Part shown: positions 31,611 to 63,227 of the stretch, piece by piece | Numbering within the stretch: position 1 is the stretch's first letter | How the letters are laid out: each line of letters starts with the position of its first letter | Origin: an uncultured Candidatus Saccharibacteria bacterium | Lineage (GTDB): Bacteria > Patescibacteriota > Minisyncoccia > RBG-13-40-8-A | NCBI GenBank assembly: GCA_965231075.1 | Contig: OZ246412.1 | Span: forward strand, 385,587 to 449,586 | Direction: 5' to 3' | Length of the DNA stretch: 64,000 nt | Notes under the pieces: generated by a model | Seen by the model: the letters and a program-made list of their open reading frames with translations, nothing else | The model's database searches: none | Told to the model about the DNA's origin: nothing | Program-made: the position numbers and the translations under genes

Positions 31611-34600
31611 TTACGGGGTTGCTGTACCTCTTAAGACCGTGAAGGTAATTGGCAATGGACCGATATTCTTGATAAGGGCCGGCATACCAAATCTTAATTC
31701 TGGATCACCTTGACCAGAAAGACCTTCTTCGTTTGTGGCATCACCCCAAACGATATCTCTTTCTCCGAAACTCATTGAGCCAGTTGCTAAGCTTCCTCCG
31801 TCGTCATTTCTTAATTGCAAGTAGATTGACTCATCTGTCTTCAAAAAGTCAGTGGTCGCATCTGCTGCAGCTAAGTCGACATGGAATTCTCTGGTAACGC
31901 CTGAAGCAACAGTCACATCTCTTTCTTCAAAGACGAAAGAAACGCTAGTTACGCTTCCGGCTAAGCTACCAAGAGCTTCTCTACTGGCGACAACGTTTTC
32001 GTTCCAGTCATATAAGTAAAGATTAATGGTGGCATCGTCAGTTGTTGACGCGACAACATCAAATCTTAATGCAGCGCTAGCAATATCAGCTTCGGTTCCA
32101 GACGTACCATCAAAGATTACATCACCACCAACAGCGGTAATTGTGAATCTTGCTAGTTCGTTTGTAGCTGTGCTTGATACTTTAGCAAATACTGGCTTAG
32201 AACGAGTAACAAAATGTAGATTAATATCGGTTTCAGCAGCATTGTCTGTGGTGTATGAAGTTAATTGTGAACCAGATTGTGCACCGTAAGCTTTTAACGA
32301 GCTTGTGCTACCATCGATATCAATTAACTTAAATGGTACCTTAGATTTAGCACCTGAACCTCCGTCGTAACCAGCAATGCTGGCCAAAACGGTTACATAA
32401 GTATCGTTGTCTTTTGGTACATAGATTCTGTTGGTTCCTGAGAAGTTGAAAGCTAAGCTTGCTGTTGCACCAAATCCCTGACCCGCGCTAACAGTCCAAT
32501 TGCTTGTTCCGTATTGAGCTTCGGTCTGGTATTTAATTTTCACAGCTGAGAAATTATCTCTGTTGGCAGTATCAGCTTCGCCAGATTCTTGTCCGTCGTT
32601 AAGAAGGACAGAGAATGTTTCAACGTACCAAGCTTCGCTGGTACCTGTAAGCTTAAACTTGCTAACTTCGTTATCGTTGGTACCCATAACCACCAAACTC
32701 TTGTCTGGGGTGTCTGAGGCACCATCAATTGCAAGTGAACCATAAGAAGCAACACCGTAGTTAACAGTAGCTGCTAATGGGTTTGAAGCATCTCCCGTGG
32801 CTTCAACGGTATTACCGTCTTTGTCGATAGCTGAAACATCAGCACTTACATCGACAAGATCGAAGCCAATCCACGTATCGGCAGTGGATGCGCTAGCAGG
32901 TGCAGCTGAAGAAACATCGTTTTTAACTAACAATGTCTTTGAGGTTCCGGCTGGAATTACCCAACTCAAGCCAGTGTAATCAACATTTTCATAATTGGTT
33001 CCACTGGTGAATCCTTTTGCGGATGAACCTGGCACCATTGCGTTCGTGTCTTTATCATAGATATAGACAGTACCAACGGTGTCTTTGACATAATTAGTAT
33101 CAATACCAGCTCCTAATGCTTCGCCAGTATCTTCCGTTGTATAGGCTGTTAACTGAATAGTATTAATGGTAATATCAGACGCCGAACCAGCAGTAAAGAC
33201 AAATCCAACTGCAGTTACCCCTGATTGACCCTTAATGTATACTTTTTCGGTTCCAGCCAAATCATTACCCGATGGACTAGCTGCCAATGAAATTGCTAAA
33301 CTTGACGCAGCAACTGTCATTTCTTCTCCGGCAATATCTCCCGATGGAGCAATTGCGCCATCATCAACAGCATCACTTGTGCCGGCATATTTCATGTAAT
33401 TTACATTGCCTGATGTACCGACCAAGGTAGCATAACTGTAAAGTACAAATTTTACCTTATCAGTTGATGCAATATCTCTGGCCGTGCCAGTGTTTGCTGT
33501 TTTTATGTCAGCTGTAACCTGATAAGTTTTGGTTGTGCCAGCTGTTAGATCGATAGTATCTGTGAAATCTTCATAGATAGCTGCTTGACCTCCACATACG
33601 CTAGCCTGGGTACCATCGTTAAACGATATACCGTCTTTTGGACCAGCAATAACAACTCCACTGTCTTTTTCTTTGATTTTAATATCTTCTAAGTCATTGC
33701 TTGCTCCATATGTTGACGAAGCGTAGGTGTTGTAACCATCTCCACTGGCATCGTGACAAAACATTAACCTTGTTCTTTTGATTGTAATATCAGCAGCTGC
33801 TGACATTGTGAATTCAAGGAAGTTTGTATCAGATGTGGTCGTGCCAACGCTTGTAGCATTTGGTCCAACTTTGGTTAAGGTTAAGTCGCCACCTTTACAG
33901 GTAACAGTTACACCTTCACCATTTGAAGTACTATCAAATCCAGTAATGGTTGCAGTCATACCATAACCGTAGGTTGTACCCTTGGCTAAGATATCTGTAG
34001 CTAATTCCTGGTAAAGAATGATAGTTCTGTCTGGTTTTTGTGCGCCAATGTCAGCGTAGACATAAAATATCTCGCTTTCACCTTTGACGATTTCATAAGG
34101 TGTGTTGAAGACAAAAGCAACATAACCATTTGAACCAATACTTGAAGCAGTTGCAACAACTGTTCCAGTTTGATCTTTAAGTTTAAGATTGGTGATCAAA
34201 GCATTGTCTGCTGTACCGCCATTGAACAACTGGATTCTGGAGATTTTTGCACCTTCAGTTGCAGTTGTTACTTTAAACTGGCTGATTTCTTGCTGTAATG
34301 CGCCAATGGTGACATTTCTTGTGTTTGCACCACTGTGTGCGACAGTTACAGTTCCAGCAGCTGTGCCGCTGACTCCCATGACATTACTCTTTAATGGGAA
34401 AGCACCACCAATTGTTCCATTACCAACGACATCTGAAGCAGATTCGATAGTAAAGTAGTTAACATTACCAGCGGTTGCGCTGATATCAGCTACTAATTCG
34501 AATGTAGCTGGAGCAGTGATTCCTAAATTAATAAAGGTAACTTTGCTTGTTGAGGTGGTAATTGATCTGCCGGCAGTTAAACGAACCCCATCTTTGTAGA

Positions 34601-35276
34601 TATAAAGGTTGTCAAAATCTTCGACAGCACCAGCTCCATCTCGTTTGAATGCGATTTGATTCAAGGTTCCTGTGCCAGTTAAGCTATATTTGGCAAAGGT
34701 AATTCCTTGTGCGGTACTTGGAAGTGTAGCTGCAGCTGGACTATCAGATGCTAGTGAAAGTATCATGTTGCCAGTAACAACTGTACCACCTGTTCCGCAG
34801 ATGCTACCTCCGGTTGTATAGTTACCACCGTCGACAGCATTGATTGTATAAACTGAATCCCAGTCATAGTTCTTGGAAGTAAAGCAAGCTAAATCATCCA
34901 CCCACTGCTTTGTTCCACTGTCTCCATCTGGTGAAAGTTTATAAACTTTTTCGTCGTTTATAACTCTAACCAATGCTGAAGTTGTGAAAGTTTTGATTTC
35001 AGTGGCTGAGATTTTCTTTAGATTGCTCCATTTCAAGTGTCCATAACTAGTGAATACTTGTGGATTCAAGACTAATCTCTTGAACATTTTCGAACCAACG
35101 ACCTTGACGATGAAAACATCATATGGTTGGTATGTGTTTCCGTCTCCGTCAACGAATGTCGTTGTCGAACTCACGATATCACCGTCAATAACAGCTGCAT
35201 TTGCAACTGGCACAATGAATGCACCATACATAGCAATTGTCGAAACGGCTAACGCGATAGATAATAATTTTTTCAT
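31611..35276 (-). CDS. Giant (1221-aa) secreted Thr/Ser/Gly/Ala/Asp-rich surface protein, an S-layer or adhesin candidate
   Basis: Signal peptide MKKLLSIALAVSTIAMYGAFIVPVANA. Low-complexity beta-rich repeats. N-terminal ~110-aa domain homologous to the 30091..31443 protein. Higher GC than its surroundings. Confidence 0.6.
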   Translation of the reverse strand: MKKLLSIALAVSTIAMYGAFIVPVANAAVIDGDIVSSTTTFVDGDGNTYQPYDVFIVKVVGSKMFKRLVLNPQVFTSYGHLKWSNLKKISATEIKTFTTSALVRVINDEKVYKLSPDGDSGTKQWVDDLACFTSKNYDWDSVYTINAVDGGNYTTGGSICGTGGTVVTGNMILSLASDSPAAATLPSTAQGITFAKYSLTGTGTLNQIAFKRDGAGAVEDFDNLYIYKDGVRLTAGRSITTSTSKVTFINLGITAPATFELVADISATAGNVNYFTIESASDVVGNGTIGGAFPLKSNVMGVSGTAAGTVTVAHSGANTRNVTIGALQQEISQFKVTTATEGAKISRIQLFNGGTADNALITNLKLKDQTGTVVATASSIGSNGYVAFVFNTPYEIVKGESEIFYVYADIGAQKPDRTIILYQELATDILAKGTTYGYGMTATITGFDSTSNGEGVTVTCKGGDLTLTKVGPNATSVGTTTSDTNFLEFTMSAAADITIKRTRLMFCHDASGDGYNTYASSTYGASNDLEDIKIKEKDSGVVIAGPKDGISFNDGTQASVCGGQAAIYEDFTDTIDLTAGTTKTYQVTADIKTANTGTARDIASTDKVKFVLYSYATLVGTSGNVNYMKYAGTSDAVDDGAIAPSGDIAGEEMTVAASSLAISLAASPSGNDLAGTEKVYIKGQSGVTAVGFVFTAGSASDITINTIQLTAYTTEDTGEALGAGIDTNYVKDTVGTVYIYDKDTNAMVPGSSAKGFTSGTNYENVDYTGLSWVIPAGTSKTLLVKNDVSSAAPASASTADTWIGFDLVDVSADVSAIDKDGNTVEATGDASNPLAATVNYGVASYGSLAIDGASDTPDKSLVVMGTNDNEVSKFKLTGTSEAWYVETFSVLLNDGQESGEADTANRDNFSAVKIKYQTEAQYGTSNWTVSAGQGFGATASLAFNFSGTNRIYVPKDNDTYVTVLASIAGYDGGSGAKSKVPFKLIDIDGSTSSLKAYGAQSGSQLTSYTTDNAAETDINLHFVTRSKPVFAKVSSTATNELARFTITAVGGDVIFDGTSGTEADIASAALRFDVVASTTDDATINLYLYDWNENVVASREALGSLAGSVTSVSFVFEERDVTVASGVTREFHVDLAAADATTDFLKTDESIYLQLRNDDGGSLATGSMSFGERDIVWGDATNEEGLSGQGDPELRFGMPALIKNIGPLPITFTVLRGTATP

Positions 35277-35370: not shown

Positions 35371-36192
35371 TTATTCGCTAATTATTTCTTCAAATTCAAT
35401 TGATTTAGATTCTGTTTCATCTTCGGTGTTGGGAACAATGACGTCTTCTGGTTTAGTTTCTTCTGACTTGGCTTCGTCATTAGCGATGATTTCTTCGGCT
35501 TTTTCTTGGGTTTTGTTAACTTGAATCAATGCCTGATCAATTTCGGTTTTAATCATGTCTTTGCCTTCGGGCATAATATAGGCCAATTGTTCGCCAGTTT
35601 TAATTAAAGTTTCTTTATAGGAGTCGGTTTGTTCGTTTACCAGTTTTGCAACCTCGGCTGCTTTTTGAGAATTTTTATCTTTTAATCTGTCCATATTTTC
35701 TTGGACAGCCACCAATTGTTCGGTAAGGTTTTTGACGGTTTGTTCAATATTATTTTTCTTTTCTGGTTTGTCGGCAATTTGTGCAACTTCATCTATTCTT
35801 TGATTAGCAAATTTTATAGAAAGCCTAGTTTTATTTTCATCGCTGGAAGCAAAACTCATTTGTGTGCTTTCCACTGCAGTTTTTAAACCATATAAAACAT
35901 CTCCCGGTAAACTGTTTTGTGCAGCGCTAATTGCGCCAATTGTTCCCAATGAACTAACAAACACAACTAATGTCAATGCGATTCCGAACGCCGGTCTAGA
36001 AAACCTTAACATACTAAAAATAGGAAAACTCGCAAAAAGCTTTCCTTTTTCTACTATTGTTTCTTTAACCAATCCTGGTTCTTTAGCACAACCTATTTCA
36101 GATAACAAAAAACTTCTCTGACCCTCAAGCCAGGAAGAATTTGGTCTAACTTTCTTCAAATTTTTAAGTTGTTTTACAATGAATTCATCCAT
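35371..36192 (-). CDS. Membrane-anchored anti-sigma-factor-like protein (N-terminal cytoplasmic segment, one TM, C-terminal coiled-coil domain)
   Basis: Immediately downstream of an ECF sigma gene; single TM (AFGIALTLVVFVSSLGTIGAISAA); charged coiled-coil C-terminus. Assignment from context and architecture. Confidence 0.45.
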   Translation of the reverse strand: MDEFIVKQLKNLKKVRPNSSWLEGQRSFLLSEIGCAKEPGLVKETIVEKGKLFASFPIFSMLRFSRPAFGIALTLVVFVSSLGTIGAISAAQNSLPGDVLYGLKTAVESTQMSFASSDENKTRLSIKFANQRIDEVAQIADKPEKKNNIEQTVKNLTEQLVAVQENMDRLKDKNSQKAAEVAKLVNEQTDSYKETLIKTGEQLAYIMPEGKDMIKTEIDQALIQVNKTQEKAEEIIANDEAKSEETKPEDVIVPNTEDETESKSIEFEEIISE

Positions 36193-36303: not shown

Positions 36304-36867
36304 TTATGATTCATTGTCAACTTCTGAAAGGTGCTTTTTTAACGATACCAATCCCCTATGAATTAATACTCTAATTGCCCCCGCTGACTTGTCTAAAATC
36401 TTAGCAATTTCGGGAACCGATAACTCATCAATATAATACAAAATTAAAACATCTTGATATTCTTCTTTTATATTGGTTAGAGACTTATGAATCTGATCAG
36501 CAATCTCCTTGGAAGATATCTCGTCCTTGGCGGGTTCTTCGTTTAAAAATATATGGAAATCGTCTCCCATAAATATGTCCTGTGAACTTTTCTTTTTGTA
36601 GTAATCAGCAATTAAATTTCTTGCAACTTTGTATAATAATGCCTGAAAACTTTCTTCAATCGTATTGGCTTTATCGGTTAAATATTCGTAGATCCTCAAA
36701 AAAGATTCTGACGACAAATCTTCTGCTAAAACTTGCGATCTAACTTTGAGGCGAATAAAACGAAAAAGCTTCGTGGCATATAAATCATAAAGCTGGCCAA
36801 AGGCCTCTTTATTGCCCGAAGCGACTTGAGAAAGTAACTCTTTTTCGTTGTCGATTGTTGCACTCAT
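36304..36867 (-). CDS. ECF-type sigma-70 family RNA polymerase sigma factor
   Basis: Region 2 (LYDLYATKLFRFIRLKV) and region 4 HTH (LSVPEIAKILDKSAGAIRVLIHRGLVSLKK). Confidence 0.8.
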   Translation of the reverse strand: MSATIDNEKELLSQVASGNKEAFGQLYDLYATKLFRFIRLKVRSQVLAEDLSSESFLRIYEYLTDKANTIEESFQALLYKVARNLIADYYKKKSSQDIFMGDDFHIFLNEEPAKDEISSKEIADQIHKSLTNIKEEYQDVLILYYIDELSVPEIAKILDKSAGAIRVLIHRGLVSLKKHLSEVDNES

Positions 36868-36898
36868 GTTACAGTTTTAGTATAACATAAAAAAATGA

Positions 36899-36934
36899 GG
36901 GCTAGCAACTCCGCGACCGCGGAGTTGCTAGCCC
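36899..36934 (-). terminator. GC-rich perfect hairpin terminator for the GC-rich small gene
   Basis: gggctagcaactccgcg / cgcggagttgctagccc inverted repeat, followed on the minus strand by CUCAUUUUUUUAUG. Confidence 0.65.
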
Positions 36935-36945
36935 GAAAAAGAGCT

Positions 36946-37254
36946 TCACTTCATGATGAAGGGCCTGGCCTGACTCTTCAGCCAGAACAGATCCTTTGCC
37001 AGGGGGACATCGCCCCCGTCGGCGAGAGCGGTTCGGAACCCGACCACCGAAGACGTATCCTGGCCAACGCCGATGAGCGTGTCGATGATCTTGTCCCGGC
37101 TTCTGGTCGCCAGTTCAAGGATCTCCGCCTTGCTCAGCGTCTTCGAGGCCAAGATCACGTTGTCGACCGCGACGTCCACGGGCTGGGCCCATGGAAACTT
37201 CACGCCCGTCAAATCGATGGTTCCGATACCGACTTCGACTCCGATCTTGTCCAT
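36946..37254 (-). CDS. GC-rich (about 60% GC) 102-aa hypothetical protein with a strong SD; foreign-looking
   Basis: Minus strand reads GAAAGGAGTCCTT ATG GAC AAG ATC..., i.e. SD AAAGGAG about 6 nt before the ATG. The codons are dominated by C/G-ending triplets, unlike the rest of the window. A terminator hairpin follows. The ORF track lists a longer 36946..37269 version. Confidence 0.5.
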   Translation of the reverse strand: MDKIGVEVGIGTIDLTGVKFPWAQPVDVAVDNVILASKTLSKAEILELATRSRDKIIDTLIGVGQDTSSVVGFRTALADGGDVPLAKDLFWLKSQARPFIMK

Positions 37255-37369
37255 AAGGACTCCTTTCAAAAAGTGACTTTAAAATACCCCGTGAAGGATA
37301 TTTTGTTATTTACATTATAGCCCCTAAATAATGTTTTGTCAACCCCGACGCAAAAGGTCGGGGCAAAAA

Positions 37370-61706: not shown

Positions 61707-61742
61707 GAGGAGTTGCCGTGTTTTTAACACTAACAACTCCTC
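61707..61742 (-). terminator. Terminator hairpin of the GC-rich lipoprotein gene
   Basis: 9-bp stem gaggagttg / caactcctc overlapping the stop codon, followed on the minus strand by GUUUUUAUUUGUUUUUG. Confidence 0.55.
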
Positions 61743-62278
61743 TACTGCTTTTCAAAAACGATCAAGCCCTCATGGGTGATCCAGAAACCGCCCATTTTGC
61801 CGTCGCCCACGACGCCATCGGTCCATTCTCGGATGTCATTAGGGTAGAGAGCAGACAGAGGAATTTCTTTCCTGTCGTACGCTTGACCAGTTTCCCAGTC
61901 CACGGTAGACAAGATAACGATCGTGGCCACCAGATCAGACGTGGAGTCTTGACCATCGTACCGAGCTCCGTCAGCAACGAAAATTTTGTACATCAAGTAG
62001 TCGTTGTTTTCCCAGAGCATGGAGGATAGATTTTCGGAAAAATCATAATCTCCATTTCTGAAAAAGTCAACCTTTCCTAGCTTAGTTTGTTCCTGATAAA
62101 CCAAGCACGGAGGAGTTTTGAATAGCTGGTCCGGACTCTTCACGTCCGTCCGCCTGTACTCCACGAACAGCTTGAACTGCTTTTTGGTGTTGGGATCGCT
62201 GGGGCCAGTGGGAAACACAGAGTCCTGGCAACCCCAAAACACCAACAGCATGAGAATCAGGATCACAATCTTTTTCAC
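61742..62278 (-). CDS. GC-rich (about 50% GC) putative lipoprotein, GTG start
   Basis: Signal peptide with a Cys (MKKIVILILMLLVFWGC). GGAGA 6 nt before the GTG. Codon usage unlike its neighbours. Confidence 0.5.
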   Translation of the reverse strand: MKKIVILILMLLVFWGCQDSVFPTGPSDPNTKKQFKLFVEYRRTDVKSPDQLFKTPPCLVYQEQTKLGKVDFFRNGDYDFSENLSSMLWENNDYLMYKIFVADGARYDGQDSTSDLVATIVILSTVDWETGQAYDRKEIPLSALYPNDIREWTDGVVGDGKMGGFWITHEGLIVFEKQ

Positions 62279-62499
62279 GGTGATTCTCCATCACTCCTCA
62301 CGTTTTGGCGTGGGGTTGCCTCACTCGTAGTGGGCTTGTAAATCATTGGGCTTGATGCCCATTATGTATGTAAAGATACAAATAAATGTACTCGCTCATT
62401 TCGCTCAATTTTTCGCTCAATTCAGCTCTATTTTGTTTTGTTTATAGTATACTCTTAAATAATTGACTTGTCAATGGATATTTGGTAAAATTAAGACAT

Positions 62500-62856: not shown

Positions 62857-63063
62857 TCAGTCGTCTTTTTTGCCACCCCTGAACACCGAAAAGATTGCCG
62901 AAAGGATTGAGCCCGTTTCGGAATCGCTCGTCTTGTTGTCGTTTCTTTCGTCGAGATGACCCGAACCGGCCGCATCGTCTCGAGCGTCGTGCCAAGCCTG
63001 ACTTACTTCCCTGGAAGAAGACTTGGTTTCCTTGGCCGTGTCCTTTTCCGTCCATTTGGGCAT
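62857..63063 (-). CDS. GC-rich 68-aa acidic hypothetical protein
   Basis: AAGGAGA 6 nt upstream of ATG (63061-63). Shares a conserved upstream leader with the lipoprotein gene. The ORF track lists a longer 62857..63084 version. Confidence 0.4.
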   Translation of the reverse strand: MPKWTEKDTAKETKSSSREVSQAWHDARDDAAGSGHLDERNDNKTSDSETGSILSAIFSVFRGGKKDD

Positions 63064-63227
63064 CGCAACTCTCCTTTGCCTCACTCGTAGTGGGCTTTGT
63101 CGATCGGGGACCCTACGGGTCCTTATGTATATAAAAGGTACTAATTAAAGTACTCGTTTTTTCTGTATCTTTTTATGCTTATATTATCATCACCAATAAA
63201 TTTCGTGTCAAGGAAAAATGGTGAATT

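Follow-up and report, generated by a model that had tools for sequence, protein, structure and literature searches.

Introduction

Pherotype loci, such as comC and blpC of Streptococcus and comQXP of Bacillus, are hypervariable loci that evolve under balancing or diversifying selection and are bordered by conserved flanks. In this study we describe a gene that shares some of these properties. It encodes a protein of 102 amino acids (aa) and is located directly upstream of an operon for an extracytoplasmic function (ECF) sigma factor in a 64,000-nucleotide (nt) stretch of DNA from an uncultured Candidatus Saccharibacteria bacterium (assembly GCA_965231075.1, contig OZ246412.1, positions 385,587 to 449,586 of the forward strand; hereafter the window). 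The Patescibacteria, or candidate phyla radiation, represent a very large and mostly uncultured share of bacterial diversity, and to our knowledge little is known of how they regulate their envelope or of their dealings with hosts and phages. ECF modules can include small accessory proteins, such as anti-anti-sigma factors and microproteins that trigger proteolysis of the anti-sigma factor (e.g. PMC12780092).

An earlier reading of the window, made from the letters alone (the sequence-only reading), had taken the gene for a probable horizontally acquired cassette from a donor, possibly a host, with a high guanine-plus-cytosine (GC) content. Our analysis favours another view. The GC-rich island is probably the most GC-rich known allele of a resident hypervariable gene, which is exchanged within one clade and for which an elevated GC content is a property of the family.

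A GC-rich protein-coding gene in an AT-rich window

The window as a whole has a GC content of 34.9%. Its GC profile shows a single peak, the most GC-rich stretch of 300 nt (61.7%, at position 36909) being more than 5 standard deviations above the window mean. The open reading frame (ORF) of the small gene (Table 1), which is translated as MDKIGVEV...PFIMK, has a GC content of 59.5%, with values at the first, second and third codon positions (GC1, GC2 and GC3) of 0.57, 0.41 and 0.81, respectively. GC3 of the other 55 ORFs of the window is 0.305 ± 0.053, which gives the small gene a z-score of 9.4. Its codon choice is the inverse of that of the genome, with ATC for 9 out of 9 Ile residues, AAG for 8 out of 8 Lys residues and CTG for 5 out of 10 Leu residues. 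Ordinary codon adaptation fails to explain this GC3 value, since ClpB and the pilins, which are native and presumably well expressed, have GC3 values of 0.27-0.28. The sequence-only reading had reported a minus-strand ORF with almost exclusively C- or G-ending codons in an island of about 60% GC, and had proposed a comparison of codon usage to see whether native, highly expressed genes are alike. They are not, and both the ORF and its composition are confirmed; only the GC content of the surrounding DNA, put at about 30%, had been underestimated.

The ORF is a genuine protein-coding gene, and not an RNA or antisense noise. The differences between the window and L001, the contig that carries the only close homologue, number 7, 12 and 24 at codon positions 1, 2 and 3 of the minus-strand frame, and the ratio of nonsynonymous to synonymous divergence (dN/dS) is 0.15 at a dS of 0.47. 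In the frame of the plus-strand ORF at 36895-37320 the same differences are distributed 24, 12 and 7, which identifies that ORF as noise, in agreement with the earlier reading. Rfam gave no match for the region at E-values up to 10, nor for the whole window at gathering thresholds, and a scan for tRNAs and tmRNAs found none. We consider it scarcely credible that the island is an artefact, be it a chimeric assembly, contaminant GC-rich reads or a non-coding structured RNA in place of a gene. Such an explanation would fit the composition steps, which are abrupt at both borders of the island, and the frames that are open on both strands. However, the junctions are identical in L001. This independent contig joins the same AT-rich promoter to the same GC-rich ORF and terminator, which makes an assembly chimera very unlikely. 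Moreover, 43 loci show the same architecture, the junctions fall on the start codon and the terminator, and the dN/dS ratio, the confident structural model (see below) and the lack of an Rfam match argue against an artefact as well.

A small-protein family confined to one slot

With the sigma protein as query, we scanned GTDB genomes and JGI metagenomes for relatives of the locus. The clade recovered in this way belongs to the Patescibacteria, the nearest entries being a 'Patescibacteria group bacterium', a metagenome-assembled genome (MAG) of Candidatus Portnoybacteria and a contig filed under Phycisphaerae. In nearly all of the about 55 loci whose sigma factor is at least 63% identical to that of the window, an ORF of 85-130 aa ends 70-150 nt before the sigma gene. 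In two loci (L102 and L114) we identified no such gene, the ORF picked upstream being the end of ClpB. The genes for P0007, P0008, P0009 and P0017 are each located directly upstream of genes for a sigma factor, a DUF5667 protein and a protein of 1207-1230 aa, in the same order as in the window, and the gene downstream of that for P0005 encodes a sigma homologue with 69% identity to the window's. L009 (JAOUFU010000290.1), a 5.9-kb contig in a 'Phycisphaerae bacterium' MAG, carries a Patescibacteria-type locus with a sigma factor that is 79% identical; judged by the same match position and identity it is probably the JGI contig L096, and mis-binned.

Among 5.8 billion proteins the sole close homologue of the small protein is P0001, which is 87% identical and encoded on L001, a contig of 942 nt with the same arrangement as in the window, i.e. 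an AT-rich promoter, a Shine-Dalgarno (SD) sequence, a GC-rich ORF and a terminator with compensatory changes in its stem. Upstream of the homologue, L001 contains another small ORF led by an SD sequence (233-421; AAAGGAG), which starts with GTG, encodes about 62 aa, has a GC content of 45% and is followed by a terminator of its own. The contig also contains the end of a gene with 59% GC, and neither of the two matches Pfam. Exhaustive phmmer and two profile searches yielded only a handful of unannotated proteins of 90-117 aa, and no homologue outside one clade of Patescibacteria was found in libraries of 5.8 billion and 1.84 billion proteins. The same was true for GenBank phages and PLSDB plasmids, searched with tblastn, and for viral contigs, which were scanned with the protein and with the promoter pattern. 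No meaningful match to the protein or the family was obtained from Pfam, NCBIfam, PHROGs or PADLOC, and a sequence-profile search of the PDB gave no match. phmmer matches to the giant repeat proteins P0002-P0004 were rejected as spurious sums of weak repeats (for example 'HRDKIIDALV', which occurs 13 times). Single-linkage clustering of BLAST matches places 31 unique slot proteins, the window's among them, in one group and leaves a few small clusters apart. Among the papers searched we found none that mentions DUF5667 and nothing relevant on ECF modules of Patescibacteria or on a locus of this kind. As far as these sequence comparisons go, the small gene is a member of an unannotated family that is confined to the Patescibacteria and always occupies one slot before the sigma operon. 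Both the homology search and the search of related genomes had been proposed in the sequence-only reading; they lead to no known family, and only to small proteins at the same locus of other Patescibacteria.

Hypervariability and allele exchange

The window and its relatives show nucleotide identities of 73-83% over ClpB, over a gene for a protein of 1049 aa, over the promoter and leader of the small gene (37345-37261), and again from about 36940-36895 onward. The stretch 37260-36940 has a nucleotide match to L001 only. Since the ORF alone lacks nucleotide similarity to relatives with aligned flanks, we conclude that its allele was brought in by replacement.

A comparison over 861 locus pairs revealed that the identity of the small proteins is almost uncoupled from that of the sigma factors. 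For pairs with 85-95% identical sigma factors the median identity of the small proteins is 32%, and for pairs with 95-100% identical sigma factors it goes down to 19-43%. In L128 and L129 the flanks are about 100% identical and the ORFs 40-60% identical, with dS values of 1.44 for the small gene versus 0.11 for the sigma gene. This contrast is beyond what point mutation would produce and points to an exchange of divergent alleles via the conserved flanks. A peak of divergence limited to the small gene was observed in the pairs L128/L129, L098/L103, L089/L091, L113/L123 and window/L089. In pairs with the same allele type, dS of the small gene matches that of the sigma gene and dN is 10-20 times higher (dN/dS of 0.3-0.4 versus 0.02-0.04), from which it follows that the small protein itself evolves fast. 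L119 and L128 have the contig prefix Ga0315286 in common and many other alleles are on contigs with close prefixes (Ga03152xx), which we take to denote one sample and one study, respectively.

We propose that the clade keeps divergent alleles in circulation and that homologous recombination, acting via the conserved flanks, exchanges one for another. This would leave the window with an ORF and terminator that are unrelated at the DNA level to those of its near relatives, next to a conserved promoter, leader and sigma operon. Two other kinds of variable locus were considered and rejected. A variable target of a diversity-generating retroelement, or a silent cassette, does not agree with the lack of a second copy in the window and with allele differences that include indels and involve all bases. 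An integron gene cassette does not agree with the gene's own promoter, which matches the consensus at 12 out of 12 positions, or with the 3' hairpin, which is a perfect terminator with a T-run and not an imperfect attC site.

Origin of the GC enrichment

Over 43 unique loci, the mean GC3 is 0.514 for the small gene versus 0.375 for the adjacent sigma gene, and the small gene has the higher value in 40 of the 43 loci (Wilcoxon p-value of 6e-8). Because the elevation is family-wide, a one-off capture from a foreign high-GC genome is an inadequate explanation. A recent transfer from a remotely related high-GC organism, such as an actinobacterium that hosts an episymbiont, is indeed very unlikely. 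It would account for the GC contents at the three codon positions and for codon choices that are typical of high-GC bacteria, as well as for SD-led translation amid a genome that hardly uses SD sequences. However, none of the libraries searched contained a homologue from outside the clade, the synteny with the ECF operon is conserved in all relatives, and the promoter and leader are AT-rich, of native type and common to the relatives. The window contains no second copy of the island, and neither att-like repeats nor mobility genes were seen at its borders, yet a Y1 transposase gene lies beside the slot in L002 and L005 and the locus has an odd hairpin (see below). The polymorphism for empty sites that a foreign island would lead one to expect was not observed, the slot being filled in nearly all loci with at least 63% sigma identity. 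What stands of the horizontally acquired cassette is that the allele was replaced relative to near relatives; the slot is resident and clade-specific, the same-slot genes of relatives share the GC elevation, and the suggested high-GC donor or host finds no counterpart in the data. The other suggestion of the sequence-only reading, 'a very unusual selective regime', comes closer to our findings, although it is not proven.

The mRNA of the small gene is predicted to be unusually well folded (z-score of -4.2 versus dinucleotide shuffles). Compared to synonymous-codon shuffles, 11 out of 14 alleles have z-scores of -2.4 or lower, which means that they fold 2.4-7.8 standard deviations better, and the excess structure is absent in the other three. 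Seven ordinary genes of the window, used as controls, have an average z-score of -0.7 (Mann-Whitney p-value of 0.006 versus the alleles). RNAalifold showed no broken pair between the window and L001, a result that is biased because the method picks compatible pairs by construction. Generic structuredness of the mRNA is supported by these data, and a specific conserved fold of the ORF is not supported.

Selection at the RNA level, on a long-lived structured mRNA or a dual regulatory RNA, would raise the GC content and force the use of an SD sequence. We regard this as possible, though less than probable, and it is compatible with an exchange of resident alleles. It would be in line with the excess folding over both kinds of shuffles (the control genes show none over synonymous-codon shuffles), with the conservation of a 5' stem-loop, and with the finding that other GC-elevated genes of the window are also SD-led, one of them being over-structured as well. 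A structured GC-rich mRNA would, moreover, need an SD sequence where the genome otherwise initiates on unstructured or leaderless mRNAs. On the other hand, the substitutions that separate the window from L001 are placed without regard to structure, three alleles are without excess structure while the control set comprises seven genes, and GC1 and GC2 are raised too, which is needless for stability alone. GC-biased gene conversion at a recombination hot spot, where allele exchange and mosaic repair would raise GC3 locally, appears unlikely. The slot is demonstrably a target of recombination and the GC elevation is limited to the exchanged segment, but heteroduplexes would be expected to form in the conserved flanks, where no elevation of GC is seen. 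Furthermore, the GC3 shifts generally reported for biased conversion in bacteria are far below the +0.14 to +0.5 observed here. In our interpretation, the GC enrichment is a property of the gene family and would stem from selection on the mRNA or from biased conversion rather than being the signature of a foreign donor; for the allele of the window, a GC-richer member of the clade is a further candidate source.

Several points weigh against our interpretation. A number of slot occupants (clusters 1-13) are not demonstrably homologous to the window's protein. The sigma factor and DUF5667 protein stay conserved across allele switches and do not co-vary with the small protein, and the accessory or sensor function that we propose below is pure inference. 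In a permutation test that kept the substitution spectrum, the synonymous changes that distinguish the window from L001 preserved the structure no better by their positions than permuted changes did (z-score of about 0). With GC3 values of 0.81 and 0.76, the window and L001 are outliers within the family, the next value being 0.67, so that a family trait alone is insufficient. In addition, the upstream 420 nt of L001 have a GC content of 51%, which leaves room for a GC-richer source lineage, and polarised synonymous changes (40 GC>AT versus 33 AT>GC) are uninformative on amelioration.

The outlier position of the two alleles and the genes at 51% GC upstream in L001 would be compatible with a xenologous import. 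The allele class would then have arisen in a member of this clade with about 50-60% GC and have replaced the resident allele, its GC3 of 0.8 being as yet undecayed. The same can be said of the replacement of ORF and terminator relative to L089, whose sigma factor is nonetheless about 90% identical, and of a CCCCGAC hairpin that moves along with this allele group. We nevertheless find such an import doubtful. The promoter and leader of L001 have 35% GC and are near-identical to those of the window and L089, so that L001 looks like a close AT-rich relative. Among the more than 60 loci that the sigma search brought up, the background GC content stays at or below 0.44 throughout. The dS of 0.47 between the window and L001, both with a GC3 of at least 0.76, implies long persistence, and alleles in other AT-rich genomes are GC-elevated too. 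The reading of the island as an extreme allele of a resident gene is therefore the one that we retain.

Features of the locus

Table 1. Features of the small gene and of the adjacent ECF sigma operon in the window.
Feature	Position	Strand	Basis
102-aa protein gene, allele of hypervariable small-protein family	36946..37254	-	dN/dS, GC3, AlphaFold2, family searches
Sigma-70 consensus promoter of small gene, TTGACA-17 nt-TATAAT	37314..37342	-	12/12 match
5'-proximal stem-loop of 59-nt leader	37281..37304	-	Structure prediction; kept in L001 and L089
Shine-Dalgarno sequence AAAGGAG, 5 nt before ATG	37260..37266	-	Sole AAGGAG at 56 window ORF starts
Intrinsic terminator: 16-bp stem, 4-nt loop, T-run	36889..36934	-	Stem-loop 36934-36899; compensatory changes in L001
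GC hairpin CCCCGAC-CTTTTGC-GTCGGGG	37343..37363	-	Between stop of 1049-aa gene (37370) and -35 box
Promoter of ECF sigma gene: -35 TTGCTA, -10 TATACT	36879..36908	-	Predicted, 9/12 match with TG; layout kept in relatives
ECF sigma factor gene	36304..36867	-	Pfam Sigma70_r2, r4_2, ECF; about 55 metagenomic loci at 63-90% identity
DUF5667 single-pass membrane protein, presumed anti-sigma factor	35371..36192	-	Pfam PF18915; syntenic in relatives
1221-aa secreted protein, third gene of operon	31611..35276	-	No Pfam match; syntenic 1207-1230-aa genes in relatives

Judged by its signals, the small gene is a self-contained unit of promoter, SD sequence, ORF and terminator that would be independently transcribed. 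Its promoter, which the sequence-only reading had not mentioned, is one of three perfect matches within the 64 kb; it is near-identical in the window, L001 and L089, and among 45 unique alleles 35 agree with the consensus at 10 or more of its 12 positions. The stem-loop of the leader, which may serve to stabilise the mRNA, differs in L001 by one compensatory change and two changes to wobble pairs and is present in L089 with a different sequence. Whereas 50 of the 56 ORF starts of the window lack even a 4-nt SD core, such a core is found upstream of 32 of the 43 small-gene alleles versus 3 of the 43 sigma genes. Numerous starts in the window are located 6-12 nt behind a TATAAT-like box (e.g. 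41146, 55725, 57854, 36867 and 44650), which suggests that leaderless or SD-independent initiation is widespread in this genome. The terminator has 16 pairs, 11 of which are G-C, and is followed by TCATTTTTTT; a hairpin of -15 kcal/mol or stronger is present 3' of the ORF in 45 out of 45 alleles. The sequence-only reading had thus rightly singled out the canonical SD sequence as rare elsewhere and the GC hairpin with its U-run as a terminator, the stem of which is, however, 16 bp long and not 15. These elements, from the consensus promoter and 5' stem-loop through the strong SD sequence and the unusually structured GC-rich ORF to the strong terminator, suggest a unit built for strong and stable expression.

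The CCCCGAC hairpin occurs once in the window and in none of 100 shuffles. It is located 5' of the promoter in the window, but 3' of the terminator in L001 (921-942, near-identical) and in L002-L004, where it shows a compensatory stem change (L002, 2154-2171); it is absent from L089. In the window and L002-L004 the -35 box directly adjoins the hairpin, and the L001 contig stops within it. The hairpin could belong to a permuted cassette or insulate the promoter. The dispersal expected of an element resembling repetitive extragenic palindromes was not found, and this candidate was rejected. A Y1 transposase gene (IS200/RAYT type) adjoins the slot in L002 (945-1637) and L005 (872-1564). The more distant loci L137-L140 differ in that the place of the small gene, directly before the sigma gene, is taken by an ORF of 237 aa, in which an HUH-like 'NHYHLL' motif was recognised by eye.

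Two other ORFs of the window are GC-elevated. The first encodes a lipoprotein-like protein of 178 aa (61742-62278, minus strand; GC3 of 0.615, folding z-score of -3.6) and the second a protein of 68 aa (62857-63063, minus strand; GC3 of 0.61), with its own promoter-like element, an AAAGGAG SD sequence and a terminator. Both leaders (62316-62335 and 63076-63095) contain the 20-nt motif GCCCACTACGAGTGAGGCAA behind a small hairpin. The motif has no match in Rfam and is absent from all 171 fetched loci, and this leader may represent a so far undescribed cis-regulatory element.

Downstream of the small gene, the operon has the layout of an ECF sigma/anti-sigma module, in which a protein with sigma-70 regions 2 and 4 is followed by a single-pass membrane protein. 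The hydrophobic segment of the DUF5667 protein was read directly from its sequence, and its position and topology are the grounds on which it is presumed to be the anti-sigma factor. The -10 box of the sigma promoter ends 11 nt 5' of the ATG, so that the sigma transcript appears to be leaderless; a conserved CTGTAAY directly precedes this ATG in relatives. The -35 box sits within the 3' arm of the small-gene terminator. This overlap suggests transcriptional coupling or interference, by which heavy small-gene transcription could modulate the expression of sigma.

Upstream lies the gene for the 1049-aa LTD/beta-helix protein, so that the small gene is indeed placed between a secreted-protein gene and the ECF sigma gene, as previously noted. 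About 4.6 kb (37370-41927) separate ClpB from the small-gene promoter in the window, and ClpB abuts this promoter in several relatives (L091, L092, L094, L002 and L012 were compared). The extra DNA contains a PaaX-like gene, a gene for 203 aa that has a perfect consensus promoter and appears to be leaderless, and the 1049-aa gene, which is common to the window and L089.

Predicted protein structure and possible function

AlphaFold2 gave a confident model from an alignment of 17 sequences (mean local confidence, pLDDT, of 89.5; predicted template-modelling score, pTM, of 0.80); a model from two sequences (pLDDT of 40) was discarded. The predicted α/β fold, of ββααββ type, begins with three short strands; a long helix (residues 42-65) and another at 70-79 follow, and three strands make up the C-terminal part. 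The best-conserved residues lie at 72-93 (G72, R74, L77, G80, G81, L85, D88, W91 and K93), and the better-conserved C-terminal motif reads G-x-R-x2-L-x2-GG-x-I/V-x-L...W-x-K/P. Inspection of the sequence revealed no signal peptide and no hydrophobic stretch of about 18 residues, and Foldseek found no significant match among PDB and viral structures.

At the level of the fold, the model may resemble SPFH/Band-7 proteins (stomatin, HflK/C and QmcA) and the periplasmic domain of FliL, as well as T-fold proteins with a ββααββ core (6-pyruvoyl-tetrahydropterin synthase, dihydroneopterin aldolase, FolX and QueF-like proteins). Unlike SPFH/Band-7 proteins, the small protein matches neither PF01145 nor a PDB sequence, has no membrane anchor, and ends in a beta-strand instead of a C-terminal coiled coil for ring assembly. 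Unlike T-fold enzymes, to which it has no sequence similarity, it shows no evident conserved catalytic residues, and its hypervariability is the opposite of what is expected of an enzyme. As the resemblance is limited to the fold, we place the small protein in neither family.

We propose that the small protein is cytoplasmic and may serve the ECF sigma envelope module as an accessory or sensor factor that is specific to the strain. Recognition of a variable input would be the task of its N-terminal sheet, which is variable, and the C-terminal motif would contact a conserved partner. Phages, hosts or competitors would be the source of this input and of the diversifying pressure on the protein. 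A more far-reaching idea, which we judge quite unlikely, is that certain genes of these Patescibacteria form a special class, being hypervariable, independently transcribed, SD-led, GC-rich and over-structured in a genome that is otherwise almost SD-less and often leaderless. The composition of these genes would itself be selected, and the slot would be a strain-specific symbiont-host or anti-phage interface. Under this idea the gene or its mRNA could possibly be tuned for, or delivered to, a GC-rich host cell, or encode a dual-function RNA. If true, it would mean that an interface of an undescribed kind precedes an ECF sigma operon.

Comparison with known systems

The locus yields an unannotated protein family with a confidently predicted fold, and the hypervariation, confined to one ORF next to an ECF sigma operon that is itself conserved, singles out a target of strong diversifying pressure. 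The link between GC-rich coding, SD use and mRNA structure bears on how different modes of translation initiation coexist. For the detection of horizontal gene transfer the locus calls for caution, since a jump of 25 percentage points in GC content with inverse codon usage reads as foreign by composition and yet occupies a resident, clade-specific slot.

With horizontally acquired ORFan islets of atypical GC content the small gene has in common the abrupt contrast, the self-contained signals and the lack of an annotated family. It differs from them in that its slot is always filled and syntenic, its promoter is of native type and common to relatives, and no outside donor is detectable. Like the small accessory proteins of ECF modules (e.g. 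PMC12780092), it is encoded as a separate unit beside a sigma/anti-sigma pair. There is, however, no homology to those proteins, and the known accessory factors are conserved together with their partners whereas the slot protein is hypervariable.

The evolutionary pattern is of a known kind and resembles that of other balanced hypervariable loci. As in pherotype loci, the divergence peaks in one short gene with flanks that are near-identical between strains, the variable gene by far exceeds its neighbours in synonymous divergence, and a regulator gene is adjacent. Unlike in pherotype loci, the product is a folded protein of about 100 aa without a signal or leader peptide rather than a peptide precursor, no co-varying receptor was seen (the sigma factor and DUF5667 protein being conserved), and the alleles are compositionally odd. 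What appears to be new is the combination of hypervariability with an inverse composition, the exclusive use of an SD sequence in an SD-poor genome, and the site before an ECF operon of Patescibacteria.

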